Part shown: positions 552 to 13,063 of the stretch, in pieces
How the letters are laid out: every line of letters starts with the position of its first letter
Numbering within the stretch: the first letter of the stretch is position 1
NCBI GenBank assembly: GCA_051294375.1
Contig: JBJCIZ010000114.1
Coordinates: 1-13,063, forward strand
Origin: Paraspadella gotoi
Taxonomy: Eukaryota; Animalia; Chaetognatha
Reading direction: 5' to 3'
Length of the DNA: 13,063 bases
Notes under the pieces: generated by a model
What the model was told of the DNA's origin: nothing
What the model saw: only the letters and a program-made list of their open reading frames with translations
The model's database searches: none
Position numbers and translations under genes: made by a program

Positions 552-3500
552 TTAAACAAGTTGCGCGAAATCTTTCTTCGTTTCCGCTTTGGGGAATTCC
601 TCCCTCGATTCAAGCCGTGCGCGCAAAAAATTGTCTCTCTCATCGTGGCCGGCGATTTTTCCACAAACCTCCGTTAAATCCCGAATAACGCGTTCGACAG
701 ATTGAGTATGAGTAGGGAAAGGTGGAAGATCCAATTTGCTCAATATTAGATTTTGCAAATCGGATATCTTGAGATCGCACGTGAGAATCGACTCGTAAAT
801 GGGAGTAGAATCCCAGTCGATCAACTCAGTGAGAGTTTTTGCATTGATATTTAACTTAGGTGGGACAAACTTTCGCACTGATTTGTCTCCCATATCACTT
901 CCTTGTCGAAGATTAACAATTTTTCGGACTGCAAATGCTCGTAAATTGGGATCATCGTTAGAGAGAAGACTGACAAGCAAATTTTCTGGGTGAGCGTTCC
1001 AGGACTTCACATAGGGAGAAACAATATCAGTTATTGCCTTAGGCAGAAGAAGAAGACGCTGGACTTGAAATAATGTATGATCGGCAGCGTTGGCGATGTG
1101 AGGGTGTGATTTTATAAAGAACCACGCGGGAATGTAATTGGTAACCGTATAAAAAATCAGTTTACGTAAATTTTCCTTAATTTTTCCTTTAAACGAGTGT
1201 TTGGATAGGTAAAGACGGCCTAACCGACAAGCCAAAGTCAGCCACCGAGAGTGGGAAATGGGACCCGGCTTTAAGGTTTTGAGTTGAGGCACAATCTTTC
1301 CACTTTGAATTGATTTTAAAACGAGAAAAAGGTATTTTTGATCAGATGATAAGTCAGAAAAGAAATTATCCACTGGCGGAATCTCTGGAACATCAGAGAT
1401 AGGACTGAACTTATCGTTCCAAACAAGATTCTCCACTTTCGGTAGAATTTTCCCTATTGGACCTTTAAAAGAGTTATTTCCAGTCGTTGGGCCATCAAGA
1501 GCTTGGAAAAGATGTCGTAGGCCTAACTCATTAGTGTGCAAGTCGCACACCACCCAATGAACTTTTTCCCCTTTGTGGTCTTCAATTTTTTTCACTATTC
1601 CACCAAAAGGGCCAGTGTTTACAGCAGTGGAGTCAACACCAACAACTTTCAAGTCCTCAGTGAGATCGTTCTCATCTAAATAAGCCATTATTGCTTTGGT
1701 CGTAGGTTCTGCCGCTTTTCCAGTTGGTGTCACATGAGTGAGAAATTTTCCATCCGGTTGTGACAGCAAAACAATATGTTCTTTTTTTTCTCGTAGTTGC
1801 CGATAAACACCGTCGTTTTCAATAACTTCTAAAGTTTCGATTTCTTTTCCGTCGAAATAAATGCCTTCCACAACGTCCTCTTTTAATCGTTGAGCCTCTT
1901 TCTGTCCGCAGTTTTCACGATATTTTTTTTTTTCACGTCTAATTCGCTGTCGATCGATGACGCATGAGTGGTCGTGGGAGGTGACGATGCCAAAGTCGAC
2001 GAGGACAGCAGTGGCGATCGCCGCGGTCAAGCGATCCGACGCTCCCCATCTCATCGCCTCGCGCGCCGTCGTCGAGAGTGGCGGAATTCGATGAGACTCC
2101 TCTGAAAAAGTAACAAAATTGTTTTAATATATGTTTTATCTATTCTAAATTATTCTTATATTTTTTAAATCTATTTAATTTATTCGTTTTTGCATTTTTT
2201 TGGGATACAACGATACTGATTAATTACTACAACTACATAACTTAGTATAATATACAAAGATCATTCAGTATAAAACTACATACTATGTTCCGTGCACAAT
2301 AGAAACTACAGGTGAAAATATTTGTTAATGCAATACCTTTATCAAAAAACGATAATGAATCCTGCGGTTTTTAAAAAAAAATCGGTAAGATTAAGAAAAC
2401 TAATTTGGTTTTTTTTAAATAATTTGTTTTTACCTTTTAAATTCAGGTAAAACAAAATTTTCGTGGAACAACAATTAAATTTTATTTAGTATAAAATTGG
2501 ACATGTTTCGACTCGGTTTTTTCGAAGCATGTCCAATTTTATACTAAATAAAATTTAATTGTTGTTCTATGAAAATTTTATTATACCTGAATCCAAACAA
2601 ACAACAAAAAGAAAGGCTTAACACAATACCTTTTAAATTAAAAACAACTTCGTCAAGTAGCGGAGATACTTCTTGTTCCGCCAAACATTCGTTCAGCTGC
2701 TGTTGGCGCCATATTTCTTCCTCTACCTTCTCCTCGACAACCATGGCAGATTGTTTGGCTTTGAAATTTCTATCGCGAGCCTGTAATTTAAAAAAAAACA
2801 TTACTAAGGACAGAAACTGTTATTATGGTTGGCGGCATCCGATCAATAGATTTCATGTTTAAAAATAATAAAAATACGATCTTGGAAAATGAATAAGTCG
2901 CCAAAACTTTTGACCAACTTTTGCCAACTTTAATATCAAAATAGGGGGGAAAATATTATAACATTATTATAACATTATTTCTTCTGAATTTTAAATTAAA
3001 AGCTAAAAAAGTCACTAAAACTATAAAAAAGTTTTGTCGATTCATTCATTTTCCAAGATGGAAAATATACTAGAAACACCTCTGGCATACACATTCAAGG
3101 GCAAACCTAAGATCAAACTCGATCCCCTAAAGTTTATAAGTGTTTTATTTTTTTAATTACTCACCTTTCTCTCTTCCGTCTTCTGTAATCTTTTGGTTGT
3201 TGCAATATCAAGTCGTCCGATCTGGAGACGAGGAGGTTGAGAATCCCGTTGACGTTGCACATAAATGAATTCCCATTCCGCAGGTGGAATTTTTTCAGCC
3301 AGAGCGCACCCGCAGTTGATTTGTACAGATTCATCCCCGTCCTTTTCCATTCGACACTGGCAGTTTAAAACTTCGAAGATTCGGTCGAGTTTTGCCTCAA
3401 AATGTTGACGTTTGGTGTCACGGGAACTACTTCGTTGAAAGTACAATTGTTTTTCGCGAGCACGCAGGATTCTTTTAGAGATGCAACGTAGTTCGACAAG

Positions 3501-3819
3501 AGATAGGGATGTGCTTGCCCGAGAATAAACATTTATTATTTCTCTTGCAATGTCATCGAACAGAGCAAAGTTGACCGGACGACCTCCTTCCTATAAAGTG
3601 TATTCAGTTGATTTTCAGTAAAATACTTAACATCATTATATTAATCGATGCACATAAGATTACAGTAAAAAACAATCTCACCTGAAGTAATGAAACGTAA
3701 GCTAAAACATCACGTAAGGTTGGGAGATCGGAGAGCGGCAAGGGCTTCGAAGGTCCGACAAGCGAACTCGAGCCGCTTCTTGAGTTTATGCGTTTTTTAC
3801 TTTTTTTTAATTTAGGCAT
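552..3819 (-). CDS. hAT-like DDE transposase, 4 exons: 3819-3682, 3590-3165, 2780-2630, 2101-552 (2265 nt, ~754 aa)
   Basis: All introns are GT..AG (CAG|GTGAGA..TTTATAG; AAG|GTGAGT..TTACAG; AAAG|GTATTG..TTTTCAG) and phases 0,0,1 join the ORF-track pieces into one open frame. Motifs: YFDG (D at 1851-1853), GVDSTAVNTG (D at 1632-1634), VCDLHTNEL (CxxH), HSRWLT (RW), HTQSVER (E at 693-695). Basic NLS-like N-terminus MPKLKKSKKR. Confidence 0.88.
2441..2592. repeat. Long near-perfect palindrome/foldback (~71-bp arms, ~10-nt loop) in transposase intron 3
   Basis: 2441-2511 attcaggtaaaacaaaattttcgtggaacaacaattaaattttatttagtataaaattggacatgtttcga is the reverse complement of 2522-2592, with about 5 mismatches. 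Confidence 0.92.
2879..3059. repeat. 33-bp inverted repeat pair around a ~115-bp AT-rich spacer (MITE-like) in transposase intron 2
   Basis: atcttggaaaatgaataagtcgccaaaactttt (2879-2911) vs reverse complement of 3027-3059 atcttggaaaatgaatgaatcgacaaaactttt; 3 mismatches. Confidence 0.82.
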
Positions 3820-4204
3820 GTTTTTATTGCGCAGAGAAATTAAAAAATGTTTTAAACAGATTTATAAAGTATTTTTAGGATGAAAATTATATTCGCATTT
3901 ACGAGAATTTTCCTCTTCTTCAGCTGTCTAAATCTAAATTGATTCTCATTGGTTGTTTTTTTTTAAATTCGCTTGCGTTAGCCAATCATATTTTTGTTCA
4001 TTCGAAACGGCGGAAAATTTTAATTAAAATCTTTTGAGATGAAACGTATTTAAAAATTCAGTAATATATATCCCGTGTGTAAACGTTCGCAATATTTTTT
4101 ATTATTTTTTTCATTTTTCAATAATTTTAGGTACGCGTCAAAGAAATATATAGCGGAATCACTCTAGTTTTGACTTTATTCCGCCTTACTTTACTTCGCC
4201 TTAG

Positions 4205-6350
4205 GTGCACATAGAAACTACAGGTGAAAATATTTGGTTTAATGCACAATATCCTTTTCAAAAAAAGGATTAATTGAATCCTGGTTTTTTAAAAAAAAAT
4301 CGGAAAGATAGAAATCAAATTTGGTTTTTTTTAAATCAATTTGTTTTTTACCTTTTAAATTCAGGTAAAACAAAATTTCGTGGACAACACATAAATTTTA
4401 TTTAGTATAAAATATGACATGTTTCCGACTCGGTTTTTCTTCGAAGCATGTCCCAATTTTTATACTAAAATAAAATTTAATTGTTTGTTCACGACTATGA
4501 AAATTTATTATACCTGAATCCACAACAAACAACAAAAGAAAGGCTTAACAACAATACCTTTAAATTACAAACAACTTGCCGTCAAGTCGGAGATACTCTT
4601 GTTCCGCAAACATATCGTTCAGGCATCTCTGTTGGCGGACCATTGAATATTCTCCTCTACTTCTCTCTCAACAACCATAGGCAAGATTGTTTGGCCTTTG
4701 AAATTATTCTATCTGGCGATGTCCTGTAATTTAAAAAAAAGCATTACAAAGGACATGGAAACCCTGTTATTATGGTTGGCGGCAATTCGATCAATTAGAT
4801 TCATGTTAAAAATAAAAAAATAACGATCCTTGGAAAATGAAAGTAGTCGCCAAAAACTTTTTGACCCAACTTTGCCAACTTTAAGAATAAGTAATAGGGG
4901 GTAAATATTATACATTATTATAAAACATTATTTTCTGAATTTTAAATTTAAAAGCTAAAAAGTCACTATAAACTATAAAAAAGTTTTGTCGATTCAATCA
5001 TTGTTCCAAGATGGAAATATTATCTAGATAACACCTCTGAGCATAACACATTCAAGGGCAGAACCTAAAGAATAAACTCATCCTCCTCAAGTTTATAAGC
5101 TGTGTTTATTTCTTTATTAATTTACCACTCTTTGCTTCTCCGTCTGCTGTAATCTTTTGGTTGTTGCAAAATCCAGGCAAGTTCGTGGTCCGATTGAGTT
5201 ACTGGTGAGGTGGGTTTAGATTGCGTTTGACTGTATGCATCGATAAATGATAGTCCCATTCTTCGTCATGTTTTGGGATTTTTTCAGCCAGGAGCAGCAG
5301 CCTTGCAGTTGATTTGGGTGACAGATTACTATCCCCGTCACTTTTTCTAATATCGACATGCACTTGGCAGCTTTTTAAAATAATCTTTCGAAAGGCTATC
5401 GGCTCGAACTAGTTTATTGCCTCTTTATAATGTTGACTTTGGTGCACGGGAAATACTTTTCGTTGAAAAGGTTACGAATTGTTTTTCGCCTGAGCACGCA
5501 GATTCTTCTTAGAATCGCAACGTAGTTGCATCAAAGATATGGCGAGATTGCTTGGCTCCTAGAATAATACATTTAAACTTATTTCGTCTTGCAATGATCA
5601 GTCTGATACAGTAAGACAGAAGTTGACCTGTATCGACTCTATTCCTATAAAGTGTGTACTTTATGTTTTTTGATTTCATGTAAAATTACTTAATCATCAC
5701 TTATATAACTCCGAGTTGCACATGAAGATTACTATTAAAAAACAGACTCACCTCGAAGTAATGGAACGTAAGCTTAATAAGCATCTATGTTCGTAAGGTG
5801 GAGATCGAGAGGGGTCAAGCTTTCGAAGTGTCTTGATCATAGCGATACTTCGAGGGCCGTTCGTTTTGAGTTGTATCGCGATTTTTTTTGACTTGTTTTT
5901 TAATTTAAGGCATGTTTTATTGCGAGCAGAGAGAATAATAAAAATGTGTTTTAAACAGTATTTTATATAAGGGTTAAGTTCTTTAGGATGAAAAGTTATA
6001 TTCGCCAAAATTTCCCGGCCAATTTACCGAGAAATTTTTCCCCCCTCTTCCTTCACTGATCTAAAATCTAAATTATTCTCATCTGGTGTGTGTTTTGTTT
6101 TTTAAATTCGCCGCCTTTGCGATTACCAATCATATTTTTGGTTCATATCGAAGCGGCGGAAAATTTAATTAAATAGTCATTTTGAGATGCGAAACGTATT
6201 TAAATATTCAGGTATATTTATATTTTTATTCTCTGTGTGTAAACCGTTCGAATATTTTTTTTTTATATGTTTTTTCATTTCAAGTAATTTTTAGTGTACG
6301 GTCGCAAATGAAATATATAGCGGACAAATTCACTCTATTTTGACTTTATT
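4205..6350. repeat. Direct tandem duplicate of 2292-4180 (transposase exons 1-3, introns and upstream region), heavily corrupted by small indels; probable unpolished-read artefact
   Basis: Colinear from gtgcac(a)atagaaactacaggtgaaaata (2292 vs 4205) to tgactttatt (4171-4180 vs 6341-6350). The copy is ~2146 bp versus ~1889 bp, and the differences are mostly scattered 1-3 nt insertions. Confidence 0.93.
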
Positions 6351-6468
6351 TCGAGAGCTAGTGAATTATACCCGCCGCACCAATATCAATAACTAATGTT
6401 TTAATTTAAATTTAAATAATATTAATTACTATTAATATTCCTCAAATATCAATACCTTCCCTCTACAG

Positions 6469-7623: not shown

Positions 7624-7633
7624 NNNNNNNNNN
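7624..7633. other. Assembly gap (10 N)
   Basis: Run of N; true distance and linkage across it are unknown. Confidence 1.
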
Positions 7634-7908: not shown

Positions 7909-8281
7909 TTATGACAAGTATCCGGTATTTGTTTCAATGTAACCGCATACACCAGAAGAATTGTAATATACGAGTATATTTTGGTAATGGAGAAAACGGT
8001 GCAATAACAGATATTTGGACTTAATTGTTAAGTCGTCATCGGCGGCTCCTGTTGAGTGTTGATCTCGCCACTCATTGTTCGCAGATCGCGCTTATCAATT
8101 CTATCATTAGATACGGGCTTTCAAAAGATCTGAAGAAGGTCGCTTATCCCATTCGGGATGAGTTGCTAACTCCATAAGTTTATCAATTAGAAAGCTTTTG
8201 ATCTTAAAAGATTCCGTTAAAATTTTTCACATTATCCTCCACAAATTCTTCTAGAGGATTCTGATAATCTGCAATAGCACA
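7909..8281 (-). pseudogene. Inverted paralogous fragment of the receptor's cytoplasmic kinase-like domain
   Basis: Minus strand 8281-8140 aligns with 12215-12376: CAIADYQNPLEEFVEDNVK/ILTESFKIKSFLIDKLMELATHPEWDKR vs CAIADDQISLEETMAMNVKKIGDILRILTESFEIKNFLINNLIEVATHPEWQKR, with a 20-nt frameshifting deletion. It continues PSSDLLK/PYLM and, after a shift, KSKYLLLHRFLHYQNILVYYNSSGVCGYIETNTGYLS*. The portion below 8140 is less certain. Confidence 0.8.
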
Positions 8282-8355
8282 TTACTTAAATCGACAAAAA
8301 ATATATATTTTTTTTCTTATTGCACCGTTTTGTCTATTATGAAAATATACTCGTA
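7969..8355. repeat. 39-bp inverted repeat (7969-8007 / 8317-8355) flanking the inverted paralog fragment
   Basis: ttattgcaccgttttgtctattatgaaaatatactcgta vs reverse complement ttattgcaccgttttctccattaccaaaatatactcgta, 35/39 identical. Confidence 0.85.
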
Positions 8356-8394
8356 CATATGCTGGGATCCGTTATCTTTGAAAAAAGGGAAACA

Positions 8395-11300
8395 ATGGGA
8401 TTTATTTCAAACCAAATAAAATGTCTTCTGTGTTTTCTGTTTTACGCCAACATCAACGCCAACGTCAACGCCAACGTCAACGCCAGCACTACGTCGAAAC
8501 TTTGTCGTCTGTTCTGTACTCAACTTCAATTTGGGGGACATAACATTGATAACAATGTGAATTGCGCCTGGGGAGAACAATTCGTCAACGGAATGTATAC
8601 GGTGCAAATAAGAAATGCCCAATGTAAAAATCTCACCAAGCACGCGGTAAGCAATCTGGTGTCGCTTCGTACAGGACTGCTTCTGAATTTGAGCTCCGCC
8701 GATAAGCTTCTTGTCGTACCTGGCGGAATCGAGATAATAGAAGATGAATTTCTGTCGGGGATGGAAGCCCTCAGAGCTTTGTTTATTTATGGAAACAGAA
8801 TAACGCGTTTACGATGGAATCTTTTTGGTAGAATAAGAATGGAAGAGATTCATCTTTCAGAAAACCTAATCTCCGACATCGATGACATTGCTTCGAAACG
8901 TGGTTGGTCTACAAACGCTTAATCTCAGAAATAACCTGATAAAGGAAGTATCGAACGCAACTTTCCACGGCCTGAAGGATTTGCATATTTGTACATGACG
9001 GAAATCGTTTGGTCTGGATACAAAAAGACGCTTTTATCTCTCTCAATTTAACAAGAACTGTGGTTGGATAAGAATCATATTATATTTTTCGACCCGGGCA
9101 TTCTGAGTGAATTGGTAAAACTAGATTTTTTGAATTTAACCGATAACTTTCTGAAGGACATAAAATTCACGAACGAGAGTCGCTCCTTGCGAAAATTACT
9201 TTTGAATTTAAACGAAATAGAGTATTTGTCGAATCGATCTTTCGTTGGTCTAAAGACCCTTAAGTCCTTTGATTTGATGGACAATCCATTAATTTTCATC
9301 GATGAAGGAACATTTTCCTTTTCGAGTTTTCTGACTCGGTTAGCCGTGGGTCGTTGTGACGCAAACACAGCATTTTGTCGTTCAGGTGACTATTTTCAAA
9401 TTCACAAAAACGTTTTTTCTTCGGCTCAACTGCTCTATGGGTCTTTTTCGATAGCCTCGCTCGAATCCCCGAGAATCTATTAACGAATTTCAAGTCAAAA
9501 TCGCTGGTTTTAAAATTAAGTAATATTTCGAAAATAGAAGCAAAATTTCAAAAACCTTGGCCGAATAAATGAATTTTCTATTATATTAGGCAAGGTTTCC
9601 AGTGTGGAAAAATACGCTTTTGAAGAAATGCGATTAACAACAATTATTAATCTTAGTAATAACCAAATTAAAGTTGTGAGAAATTGGTTCAAAAGCTCCT
9701 CCGCTTTGCGGCGTTTAATCTTAGTTTTAATTATATATCCCACTTTGACGATGATTGTTTCAGTAATTTGGTAACCATTGAAACAATTGAACTTGATGTT
9801 AATAATATAACAGTAATAAACAGAAAGGCATTTGGTAACCTTCAACAATTACGAAATTTAACCTTACGTATAAATCGCATCTACACTCTGAACGAATTAG
9901 GTCTCCAAAATATTAGATCCATCAATTTGTTAGATCTGACTTCCAATAATTTACAATCTATCGAATTGTCAGTTTTGAGTTTATACATTGACACTTTGAG
10001 GCTTGAAAACAATAAAATTCGTCGAATAAATTGCGCGAATTTTTTGTTACGTTAAGAATCTTGAGCTTAATTCCAATTCGATTGAAAGGATCGAAAACGA
10101 TCTAAATTGTTTCAACGTTATAAATTCACTAACAAAATTAAGTATTTCATACAATATGCTTAATTTTATCAATCCGTCCGAGTTTTTTGGATTCAAAAGA
10201 CTCGACACTGTTTACTAAAATCTAACACTTTCAAAACTTTCCAATTTGTTGCGAATCTTGAACATTTAAGTAGACTCGATTTAAGTCGGTCAAGTAGCGT
10301 TCAATCTTTTTCAAAAGAAGTAGTTCGAGCGTTTGAATCCACGACTAATCTTAAATTAGATGGCATAAGATGGCCGTGTCCATGCGGAACCGAATATTAC
10401 CCCATGATGGAATTTTCTTAAAAAAAAATATGAGAAAATTCCATGTTGTCCGATTTTGTGTAAATGCTCACATAAGGAAAAACTTCATAGAGATTGATTG
10501 TTCTGAAATATATTATCGGGTTTATATAACTGTTTTTACTTCAATTGCTCGCTGGACTATTCATTTAAAGGAAATCATTCGAACTTTTACTTTTCTAATC
10601 ACGAATTAGTACAACAATTAAATATTAGTTATAATAACCTATCCTACCTAAACTTTACCAAATTCAAAGACGTGTCAAACTTGAAATTATTAGACTTGTC
10701 AAACAACAAATTTTCCAAAATTTCATCAAACCATTCGACAATATTAAAAAGAATAGCTAAAGTGATTTTTGATGGAAATCCATTTGGCTGTTGGTGCGAT
10801 TCTGAAAATATTGAATCAATGAATTTGTTGTATCAAAATAACTTTCTTACGCATTGTTGTCCCTTGAAATGTAAGTGCTCTATTCGAAATGGTTATTTTT
10901 ATGTTGATTGTTCAGGAGAGATATTTTCCAAACTTTCTCGATGCTACCCTTACGACCAGACTTATTTAGATTATTCAAATACCAATTTTAACTTATCTTT
11001 TGAGAGCGTAAAACGAGGATATAATATTCATGCTCTTGTTTTGAAGAATAATAAATTGAGCAGTCTGTCTAGACTTGGATTGATTAAGCTCTCTAACTTA
11101 AAAATTCTAGATCTGAGAGAAAATAATTTTCAGGTCATTGAACCTTCAATTTCGTTGATATTGGAAATATTTCTGAATGTATTTAGATTTTAACCCATGG
11201 CAGTGTAGTTGTGAAAGAAAATACAGCAATATCATGCATATTCTTTTGAAGAATGGCGTTCAGCATCCCTGTTGTCCAAATAATTGTCTGTGTTCAATAA

Positions 11301-12394
11301 CTGAAGCGATAACTAAGGTAGATTGCTCTAAGAAGCCTTTTAACTATTTTCCAAGTTGTTTACCTTGGCATAACACTCACATTAATTACTCAAACACGAA
11401 CATAAAAAATGATCATCTTAATTTAAAAGTAAATATGCCAAATGTCATTCTGCTCGATCTGAGTTACAATAACCTAACTACTTTAAAGTTTTTTGATGTT
11501 GAGAAGCTAAAGAATTTGCGTACAGTCGATCTCCGATTTAATAAGTTACATTCACTCAATGATCTTATTAAACTCGGTTTTATTGACCTGAAATTAGATG
11601 GTAATTATTTTGACTGTTCTTCATGCGACCAAGTTGTTAATTTTTCAAAAATATTTGAGTTTTATGAAATCAACATTACATGTAAAAACTCCACCATAAT
11701 TAAACGGCGTTCGGTCTGTTATGTTTATAATGTTGTAATTCCTTCAATCGCAGCTTCAGTTTGTTTCCTTACTCTGGCCGGTGTTTCTTTTCATTTTGTG
11801 AAAAGAGAATGGATAAAACGAGTCAATTTGAAGAAAATGAAGAGATCCCATAAATTAATTGAATTCAATTTGAAAGACAAATCAAAGAAATACGAATTTG
11901 AAAAATTACTTTTACACTTTGAGATTGTGGAAGGCTTTCAAAACGGATTGCCGAACAGAATACTTAAACGCATTTGGAATAACTCCAACGGCTTGTGTGT
12001 TGTCGAGCCCTGGCTTTGCACACTGCAAGAATTTAGTAACAAGAAAGTCTGTGAAAGTATTGAATCAGACGTCGCCATTGAAATTTCAAGAGATTTAGTA
12101 GAATCCGTGTCTCAGCTGTCATTGATTCAAGAAACAAAAATGATTGTTGACTTTGCGTCGTTTTACATATTGCAAGAAGAAAGTAGGTACAGATTAAAAC
12201 TGGGATTATTTAGTTGTGCTATTGCAGATGATCAAATTTCTCTGGAAGAAACCATGGCAATGAATGTGAAAAAGATCGGAGATATATTACGAATTTTAAC
12301 GGAATCTTTCGAGATCAAAAACTTTTTAATCAATAACCTTATCGAGGTAGCAACTCATCCCGAATGGCAAAAGAGACACAAACTTGCGAGGTAG
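8395..12394 (+). CDS. Single-pass LRR receptor with a Toll-like multi-cysteine-cluster ectodomain and a non-TIR, pseudokinase-like cytoplasmic domain; ~1330 aa, apparently intronless, frameshifted in this assembly
   Basis: ATG at 8395 followed by the signal-peptide-like MGFISNQIKCLLCFLFYA. LxxLxLxxNxI repeats continue through the gaps between listed ORFs when frames are switched (e.g. GLQTLNLRNNLIKEVSNATFHGL near 8900-8980; LTKLSISYNMLNFINPSEFFGF near 10130-10195). Cysteine clusters at 10359, 10771, 11186 and 11597. TM helix VVIPSIAASVCFLTLAGVSFHFV at 11732-11800 followed by basic residues, then 197 aa of cytoplasmic tail. The true 3' end may lie further downstream. Confidence 0.85.
8444..8485 (+). 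repeat. 12-bp tandem repeat x3.5 encoding ANIN-ANVN-ANVN-A at the end of the signal peptide
   Basis: acgccaacatca acgccaacgtca acgccaacgtca acgcca. Confidence 0.9.
10359..11625 (+). repeat. Three tandem ~411-415 bp protein modules: short CxC cap, CCPxxCxCS..(V/I)DCS LRRNT, then about 3 LRRs
   Basis: DGIRWPCPC..CCPILCKCS..IDCS (10359); DGNPFGCWC..CCPLKCKCS..VDCS (10771); DFNPWQCSC..CCPNNCLCS..VDCS (11186); final DGNYFDCSSC cap (11597). Spacings are 412, 415 and 411 nt. Confidence 0.85.
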
Positions 12395-13063
12395 CTTATC
12401 GCTGGAAGCGCCTGTCTTCATGAGCACTCTACTATCTGGATGAGGATCGTAATTGTTACGCTCGGGGGATGCAACGAAAATTCGTAAACTTCCCCCATTT
12501 TTCAGCGGCGAAAAAGAAGGCAAAAGTAAGTCAGTCTGTGATCCGCAGATCGTTTTTATATTTTGAAGAAAACTGATGAACGCGGAAATTCATCTTTTGC
12601 GGCGGCGCGAAGATTGGCAATTTGAGCGTGAGTATCTCATCGAGACTTCGAGGTGAACTCTGATCCACGATTTCGCGGGAAAAAACGCGTCAAGACAGTG
12701 AGAAAACAGCGTCCATGTTTCTGCACTCGTTTCGTCAGAAACTGCCTCTCACGTCACGCAACGAGGACCGACTCCATCCGATGGCCAACAGGATTTTCGG
12801 AAATCCTCAATCCCTACCAACGCAACAAGAGCGATCATCCGGTTATTCTTATCACGAGAAGTCTTACCCGCCTTGGTTTGCCAGTCTTTTTCTTTACCGA
12901 TCTCACTTCCCAGCTCTGCGAAAGGAACGGAAAACGTACTTTCGCCAAGACGTTGGTCGGACGAGGATGGCCGACCAATGAGCCTTTCGGAACGCAGCAA
13001 TGCTGGCAACGCTGGTCGATAGGAGTGGTCTTCGCAGGATTCAATCGCGTATTTCCTAAAGAA
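12395..13063. other. Unassigned, less AT-rich, coding-like sequence (frameshifted receptor extension or a neighbouring gene)
   Basis: Higher GC than the local introns, with overlapping open frames on both strands; no recognisable motif. Confidence 0.25.

Follow-up and report, generated by a model that had tools for sequence, protein, structure and literature searches.

Which intracellular domain does an animal receptor carry when its extracellular leucine-rich repeats (LRRs) recall those of Toll and its cytoplasmic tail has no recognizable TIR domain? In the usual division of labour, the LRR sensor is fused to a kinase in plants, whereas in animals it carries a TIR domain and the kinase is recruited in trans. 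The question is raised by positions 8395–12394 of a 13 063-nucleotide stretch of DNA from the chaetognath Paraspadella gotoi (GenBank assembly GCA_051294375.1, contig JBJCIZ010000114.1, positions 1–13 063 of the forward strand; the whole stretch is referred to as the window), which an initial annotation had described as a Toll-like LRR ectodomain joined to a pseudokinase-like domain. We conclude, with a probability of about 0.6, that the locus encodes a single-pass LRR receptor whose tail probably has a dead protein-kinase fold that would act as a docking scaffold.

The initial annotation treated the region as one continuous gene, which the window as assembled does not contain. No single open reading frame (ORF) spans 8395–12394; consecutive pieces of the gene are spread over the three forward frames, the longest intact piece is 405 residues (11177–12394) and a reading from the ATG at 8395 to the tail (8395–11801) has to change frame at least 11 times. 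The gene is present in nine public sequencing runs from one organism and three studies, and contigs of four of these (X1, X2, X5 and X9) were compared with the window; the best-matching run may be the source sample itself. At the frame breaks these contigs carry insertions or deletions (indels) of 1–4 bases relative to the window (12 of the 29 indels are listed), and the bases put in or left out are identical in X1, X2 and X5. Two X1 contigs, covering 8353–10581 and 10581–12377, have net gains of 15 and two bases, which places the ATG at 8395 in frame with the tail and gives about 1333 codons up to 12377. Four shorter X2 and X9 contigs (net +6, +3, +1 and −1) and another X2 contig (+6) each fit their end frames, and the frame is restored by net length in all six contigs in which both end frames were compared; the point at which the two X1 contigs meet is bridged by one X9 contig. 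Introns were considered as the cause of the breaks and rejected, the DNA contigs differing from the window by indels of 1–4 bases. Contigs from DNA runs also contain joints that skip 50 and 65 bases (8436–8487 and 9433–9499). Three LRR modules, the transmembrane (TM) segment and the tail lie together on one X1 DNA contig, in frame by net length, and splicing is therefore not needed to join them; the proposed linkage of ectodomain and tail accordingly holds at the level of DNA, while no confirmed RNA run is among those that contain the gene. (X9 is only guessed to be RNA, covers 19 of 30 bins at low depth and was not used as evidence of expression.) The frame breaks in the window are likely to be assembly errors, and the gene is likely to be a single exon of about 1350 codons, predicted to be intact in the living organism.

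The ectodomain is the best-defined part of the predicted protein. A hydrophobic stretch follows the ATG at 8395 (nine-residue hydropathy of up to 2.5) and is likely to be a signal peptide; the stretch reported initially is thus present, the peptide itself being putative. Directly after it, a short hexamer-like repeat (N-A/N-V; 8446–8490) varies among the read contigs, with loose ends at 8447 and 8478, as a length-variable linker would. Matches to an LRR-core pattern number 30 on the forward strand and six on the reverse strand over an equal span, 24 of the 30 lying on the coding path in our reading of the matches. Pfam LRR_8 reaches an E value of 1.6e-19, and all six ectodomain-bearing frames that were scanned contain LRRs by Pfam, at E ≤ 1e-5 except for one at 0.076. 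Four cysteine clusters were located by translation (at about 10370–10510, 10790–10910, 11200–11360 and 11615–11720), as claimed initially, and cut the ectodomain into a long LRR module and three short ones. Each of these three is entered through an LRRCT/LRRNT-like cysteine junction, and they resemble one another (tblastn internal repeat, E values of 1e-16 and 1e-6). One TM segment follows, with a 19-residue hydropathy peak of 2.05, and the Pfam scans of the tested frames gave no match to an Ig domain. The protein thus displays traits of Toll and TLR receptors, namely an LRR ectodomain with cysteine caps, a single TM segment and a likely signal peptide, and a type I membrane topology is firmly predicted. 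The label 'Toll-type' stands as far as the capped repeats and the TM segment are concerned; the sole database match of the LRR part (one of 286 candidates) is a Slit-like protein (E = 3e-12, 28% identity).

The tail contains no detectable TIR, as had been stated. At E ≤ 10, Pfam gave no match to TIR, TIR_2 or SEFIR, 85 bacterial TIRs (the frames obtained from 120 loci) used as a profile gave no signal in any of eight settings (z from −1.8 to 0.2) and no TIR cluster occurs among the ESM Atlas matches of the tail. These matches are instead headed by kinase clusters at 0.93–0.96, the top match (0.96) sharing 196 of 256 features. Seven of the nine rows listed carry kinase Pfam families and two carry none, and the ten best family-bearing matches all belong to one family or clan; in calibration, shuffled proteins reached 0.95 about once in 100. 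With the LRRs and TM segment included, all six rows are LRR-kinase clusters (0.86–0.88), a lead obtained with the same method. A colinear eight-block test asked for kinase landmarks in order along the tail. With an IRE1 profile the score was matched by 23 of 1000 shuffles, or by one of 1000 when the end was read through; with a generic kinase profile the corresponding counts were two and 13 of 1000, and none of 29 natural control segments reached the score. The two profiles pick the same tail residues, in order, for β2–β3, helix E, the catalytic loop and helix H with the subdomain-XI Arg. (The IRE1 sequences were fetched from metagenomes and their identity confirmed, giving 21 KEN and 13 kinase sequences from 33 loci after removal of duplicates, short frames and two intron read-throughs; the generic profile was built from 53 of 120 loci, those with a frame of sufficient length.) The last 42 residues of the read-through tail align without gaps to the IRE1 profile at 25.2 bits, covering helix H, RP, helix I and HPFFW. 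Zero, one and nine of 400 shuffles scored as high in three gap settings, and no such match was seen with the generic profile. A single-sequence AlphaFold model has an order of strands and helices that fits a kinase, but its mean predicted confidence (pLDDT) is 38. The tail quite probably adopts a protein-kinase fold. The pseudokinase assignment of the initial annotation is therefore now the best reading and its subdomain map largely holds with two profiles and the ESM Atlas, although direct structural or profile proof was not obtained and the specific IRE1/RNase L origin that it suggested was not established.

Block mapping also shows what such a kinase would have lost. The Gly-loop is absent, the β3 Lys position is occupied by Glu (or by Lys one residue later), the DFG position reads LFS, there is no APE and the activation segment and the helix G region are shortened. 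The HRD position reads IVD, with Tyr at the Asn position, and its Asp may be kept; the earlier statement that Gly-loop, HRD and DFG are all missing thus applies to the first and last and perhaps not fully to the second. The tail does not carry the motif set of an active kinase (Gly-loop, β3 Lys, HRD with Asn, DFG and APE) and would be a non-catalytic pseudokinase scaffold, probably one that binds no nucleotide, since the Gly-loop, β3 Lys and DFG, on which the prediction of no ATP binding is based, are replaced.

The C-terminus required correction. All compared contigs stop matching the window at 12377, beyond which reads were consulted through 30-letter loose ends. Those of X1 and X2 continue in frame after the K-R of the window with P-S-x-x-V-L-L-E-A-P, running past its stop codon and the five residues before it; L-E-A-P-V-F-M also occurs in the window, in a shifted frame that ends at a TGA (12441–12443). 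Because the read contigs continue in this way, like the end of a kinase domain, the stop at 12392–12394 is likely to be an artefact and the true stop is likely to be that at 12441–12443. The 197 residues initially assigned to the tail are therefore too few; it has at least 202, or about 211 if it ends at this TGA. The corrected end adds an RP...P-F match to IRE1-type kinases.

Several copies of the gene appear to exist. X2 and X5 contain two or more versions, seen as tightly grouped differences at roughly half depth (such as ten sites in 12227–12291 and eight in 9626–9658), and X5 has a frameshifted copy with a 4-base insertion at 11410 (depth 481 of 1114). Upstream of the gene, an inverted fragment of the tail (8072–8324) has K-R-P-S behind the helix-H motif, with a stop some 20 codons further on. 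Contigs of X2 and X5 agree with 8200–8550 throughout, and the fragment seems to be absent from X1, in which about 7982 is joined to 8353. Across 29 codons the fragment differs from the tail by four synonymous and eight nonsynonymous changes, a mild synonymous excess per site. The divergent copies, the frameshifted copy and the inverted fragment suggest rapid turnover, and the family is likely to be small and lineage-restricted; the variation fits an immune-type birth-and-death family and also relaxed constraint. The fragment is flanked by a 42 bp inverted repeat (88%; 7966–8007 and 8317–8358), the DNA between whose arms is apparently missing from X1. Both arms translate to L-L-H-R-F-x-x-Y-x-N-I-L-V, with the spacing of a kinase catalytic loop, and the reading frame of the right arm is that of the gene's ATG; the word may be due to chance or may be a remnant of another kinase-like gene.

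A number of results weigh against a kinase-type receptor. For the tail, neither Pfam nor phmmer against PDB sequences returned a kinase, hmmsearch with the 53-sequence kinase model gave 2.2 bits (equalled or exceeded by 78 of 998 shuffles) and HHalign against two kinase alignments gave a probability of 0.23 or less, so that the profile checks proposed with the initial annotation found no kinase. The proposed structural check found none either. With the single-sequence model, Foldseek returned nothing at E ≤ 0.001 and the best VIA Z was 5.7, to unrelated folds; the model is uninformative at a pLDDT of 38. This value rose to 42 with ten IRE1 rows, and the kinase matches of the latter model (best E value of 0.05) are circular. 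AlphaFold was run without an alignment because no relatives of the tail are present in protein collections: there were no matches at E ≤ 0.001 among 1.84 billion protein representatives, none among 595 and 704 word-sharing candidates and none among six viral-contig pattern matches. When all six frames of the window were searched by hmmsearch with the IRE1, KEN and generic kinase profiles, nothing positive emerged. The eight-block test was devised after the profile failures and omits the Gly-loop and APE blocks; automatically chosen blocks give z values from −1.2 to 2.7, with three of 16 kinase settings reaching 11 or fewer of 300 shuffles. Such inconsistency is expected if the most conserved motifs are those that were lost, but it weakens the result all the same. 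Two MAFFT alignments of the tail to IRE1 disagree completely, which indicates that it cannot be aligned reliably to any kinase family. At the level of the gene, the stop-free frame is deduced from net lengths, with 12 of 29 indels and 40 of 136 substitutions listed, and nine of the 11 listed variant codons in the tail change the residue, about as expected without constraint.

On a rival explanation, the receptor is real and its tail is a lineage-specific, non-kinase α/β domain, similar to kinases by convergence or chance. All standard profile searches were negative, the addition of kinase rows did not bring AlphaFold to converge on a kinase and the block signal varies with the choice of blocks; we nevertheless regard this as unlikely, as such a domain would not readily account for ESM features at 0.96 with top family-bearing matches confined to one clan, for the read-derived RP...P-F ending or for the same landmarks being chosen by two unrelated kinase profiles. 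That the protein is instead an ordinary Toll with multiple cysteine clusters, ending in a highly diverged TIR or SEFIR domain, is highly improbable: the ectodomain and juxtamembrane module do recall protostome Tolls and the tail is of TIR-like length, but the Pfam, TIR-profile and ESM Atlas searches described above were uniformly negative and the consecutive strands of the (low-confidence) model differ from the alternating TIR fold.

Two further explanations accept a kinase ancestry. The tail could be an eroding, once-active kinase with no current role, in a pseudogene or relaxed duplicate, a view suited to the frameshifted X5 copy, the truncated inverted copy, the predominance of nonsynonymous tail changes and the lack of an RNA-confirmed transcript. 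We consider it very unlikely, since about 4 kb remain in frame by net length in the X1 and the X2/X9 pieces, the paralogue codons show a mild synonymous excess and the structural blocks have kept their spacing although the catalytic motifs are replaced, which suggests long selection on the fold. The match of the C-terminus to the IRE1 kinase-to-KEN junction led to a test for KEN, in which the gene would run past 12443 into a KEN (HEPN) ribonuclease (RNase) as an LRR-gated receptor resembling IRE1 or RNase L; ligand-driven dimerization of the pseudokinase would turn on RNA cleavage, the RNase being hidden in some 600 unpolished bases. A frameshift-tolerant alignment over 12460–12945 does cover positions 3–148 of a 148-position IRE1 end-plus-KEN profile, a strict R-N-x-H word, defined post hoc, occurs in 0.06% of 5000 shuffles and errors in this apparently unpolished stretch could mask a domain. 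However, the local score of 18.9 was matched by 119 of 1056 shuffles, the glocal score has a p value of about 0.02–0.04 only with the kinase end included (0.10–0.25 for the KEN core, which 10–25% of shuffles and six or seven of 34 other window tiles reach), the loose form of the word occurs in 20% of shuffles and the Pfam scans gave no KEN match. In the window frame as in the inverted paralogue, a stop comes 10–14 codons past the L-x-A-P word, and G+C content rises from about 0.35 to 0.5 after 12400, as if other DNA began there. An attached RNase is accordingly distinctly unlikely. Within 12632–13063, which has no clear Pfam match and may be part of another gene or element, a G+C-rich segment (12702–12981) is free of stops in all three forward frames (144, 105 and 106 residues).

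Our preferred reading, that of an LRR receptor with a catalytically dead kinase fold, suggests a mode of action. A ligand, most likely microbial, would bind the LRR modules and bring two receptors together, and the paired pseudokinase domains would act on an active cytosolic kinase or adaptor, by recruiting or switching it, and so bypass the TIR-adaptor step of Toll signalling. Plant LRR pseudokinases of the BIR2 type and animal receptor pseudokinases act in this way for their partners. The variation among copies would favour an immune role, with a Slit/Toll-type function in adhesion or development as the alternative.

The features of the locus are collected in Table 1. Elsewhere in the window, an intact ORF of 500 residues on the reverse strand (552–2054) is free of frameshifts despite the error-prone assembly; we take it to resemble a DNA-transposon transposase, and Pfam (E ≤ 10) and phage searches returned no match to it. 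An Rfam search also gave no match. The G+C-rich segment 7350–7620 is similar in composition to the start of this ORF and is followed by a 10-base N gap beside a GA run (7624–7633). A 152 bp palindrome-like element (2441–2592; 87% self-complementary) is possibly a miniature inverted-repeat transposable element, and further short inverted repeats lie at 2879–2911 and 3027–3059. A 2 kb tandem copy (4205–6353 versus 2292–4183; 78% identity, 337 gap positions) looks like a false duplication in which the assembly retained an unpolished long read, in keeping with assembly errors at the frame breaks of the gene.

Table 1. Features of the receptor locus and predicted kinase landmarks of the tail
Feature	Position	Strand	Basis and remarks
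Inverted, truncated paralogous copy of the 3' end of the tail	8072–8324	−	72% amino-acid identity; 20 bp deletion
Start codon and likely signal peptide	8395–8450	+	Hydropathy; second in-frame ATG at 8359
First, long LRR solenoid with Cys-containing N-cap	8500–10370	+	LRR cores at 8779–10138; Pfam LRR_8; indels absent from read contigs
Three short LRR modules and final juxtamembrane cysteine cap	10370–11731	+	Translations; tblastn internal repeat; Slit-like similarity
Single TM helix, then basic stop-transfer stretch	11732–11800	+	Hydropathy
Cytoplasmic domain, likely a shortened, inactive protein-kinase fold	11801–12377	+	ESM Atlas, block-chain test, alignment; Pfam, HMM, HHalign and AlphaFold negative
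Predicted β2–β3	From 11864	+	Block mapping
Predicted hinge/helix D	About 11987–12034	+	Block mapping
Predicted helix E	From 12077	+	Block mapping
Predicted catalytic loop	From 12134	+	Block mapping
Predicted DFG position (LFS)	About 12206	+	Block mapping
Predicted helix F	From 12248	+	Block mapping
Predicted helix H and Arg	To 12376	+	Block mapping
Error-rich true C-terminus (helix I, P-x-F word in shifted frame)	12378–12443	+	X1/X2 loose ends; IRE1-profile match
G+C-richer, probably unpolished stretch with KEN/HEPN-like words	12444–13063	+	R-N-x4-H word near 12733–12756

If the assignment is correct, the receptor would represent an independent animal route to the LRR-kinase design of plants and provide a model, open to testing, of how signalling could proceed without TIR adaptors. 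Surveys of kinomes and Toll repertoires that rely on Pfam would miss it and file it as 'LRR-TM without TIR', and the many invertebrate LRR-TM genes that lack TIR would be worth searching for cryptic kinase folds. The truncation of LRR receptor genes by indels in an assembly is also illustrated by this case. Our literature search found no animal LRR-TM-pseudokinase or LRR-kinase-KEN protein, subscription papers and supplements lying largely outside its coverage. Immune-repertoire papers on amphioxus, sea urchin and sponges reportedly list unusual LRR-TM fusions. The protein is likely to be a variant, new for animals, of the LRR receptor-(pseudo)kinase architecture.

Among the closest known systems, the plant LRR receptor-like kinases (RLKs), including BIR2, have the plan predicted here, with a signal peptide, an LRR-only ectodomain, one TM segment and a cytoplasmic domain of kinase type. 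Unlike these, the present receptor has animal-type cysteine-capped LRR modules and would have lost every catalytic motif and most of its activation segment; membership of the tail in the RLK/Pelle clade is unsupported. Trk likewise combines extracellular LRRs with an intracellular kinase fold (here predicted) in an animal receptor. It has few LRRs, Ig domains and an active tyrosine kinase, whereas we find at least 24 LRRs, no match to Ig or PK_Tyr_Ser-Thr and a fold that is probably shortened and dead. The junction of LRRCT and LRRNT followed by a short LRR module is shared with Slit and with Tolls that have multiple cysteine clusters, but it occurs three times here, and TIR, EGF and laminin-G domains are lacking. 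The available text of PMC4718504 names BIR2 as a pseudokinase, and a preprint, in the part accessible, ties holozoan LRRs to Trk (bioRxiv 10.1101/2021.08.03.454916). According to the accessible portions of PMC3268121 and PMC10463195, the LRR-TM-kinase architecture originated independently in plants, oomycetes, Monosiga, Chlorella and Ectocarpus; these portions list no animal clade with LRR receptor kinases; the former states that the animal LRR receptors Toll and TLR have no kinase domain. A survey of Aplysia describes TLRs with ROC/COR additions and, in the sections at hand, no kinase fusion (PMC9334734). The present gene would resemble the oomycete, Monosiga, Chlorella and Ectocarpus receptor kinases, as these sources portray them, in having reinvented the architecture by domain shuffling, and would differ in that their kinases are detected by Pfam and its tail is not. 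IRE1 and RNase L join a kinase or pseudokinase to a KEN RNase (PMC3710099 and PMC4718504, in part), and no LRR fusion appears among the KEN architectures in the available text of PMC3710099. The end of the tail from helix H to helix I matches IRE1 profiles; the sensor, in contrast to IRE1 and RNase L, is an LRR ectodomain, and a KEN domain finds no Pfam match. In the excerpted account of PMC4718504, the pseudokinase of RNase L is a dimerization scaffold with a noncanonical C-lobe that keeps canonical nucleotide binding, whereas in the chaetognath receptor the Lys and DFG positions are replaced.

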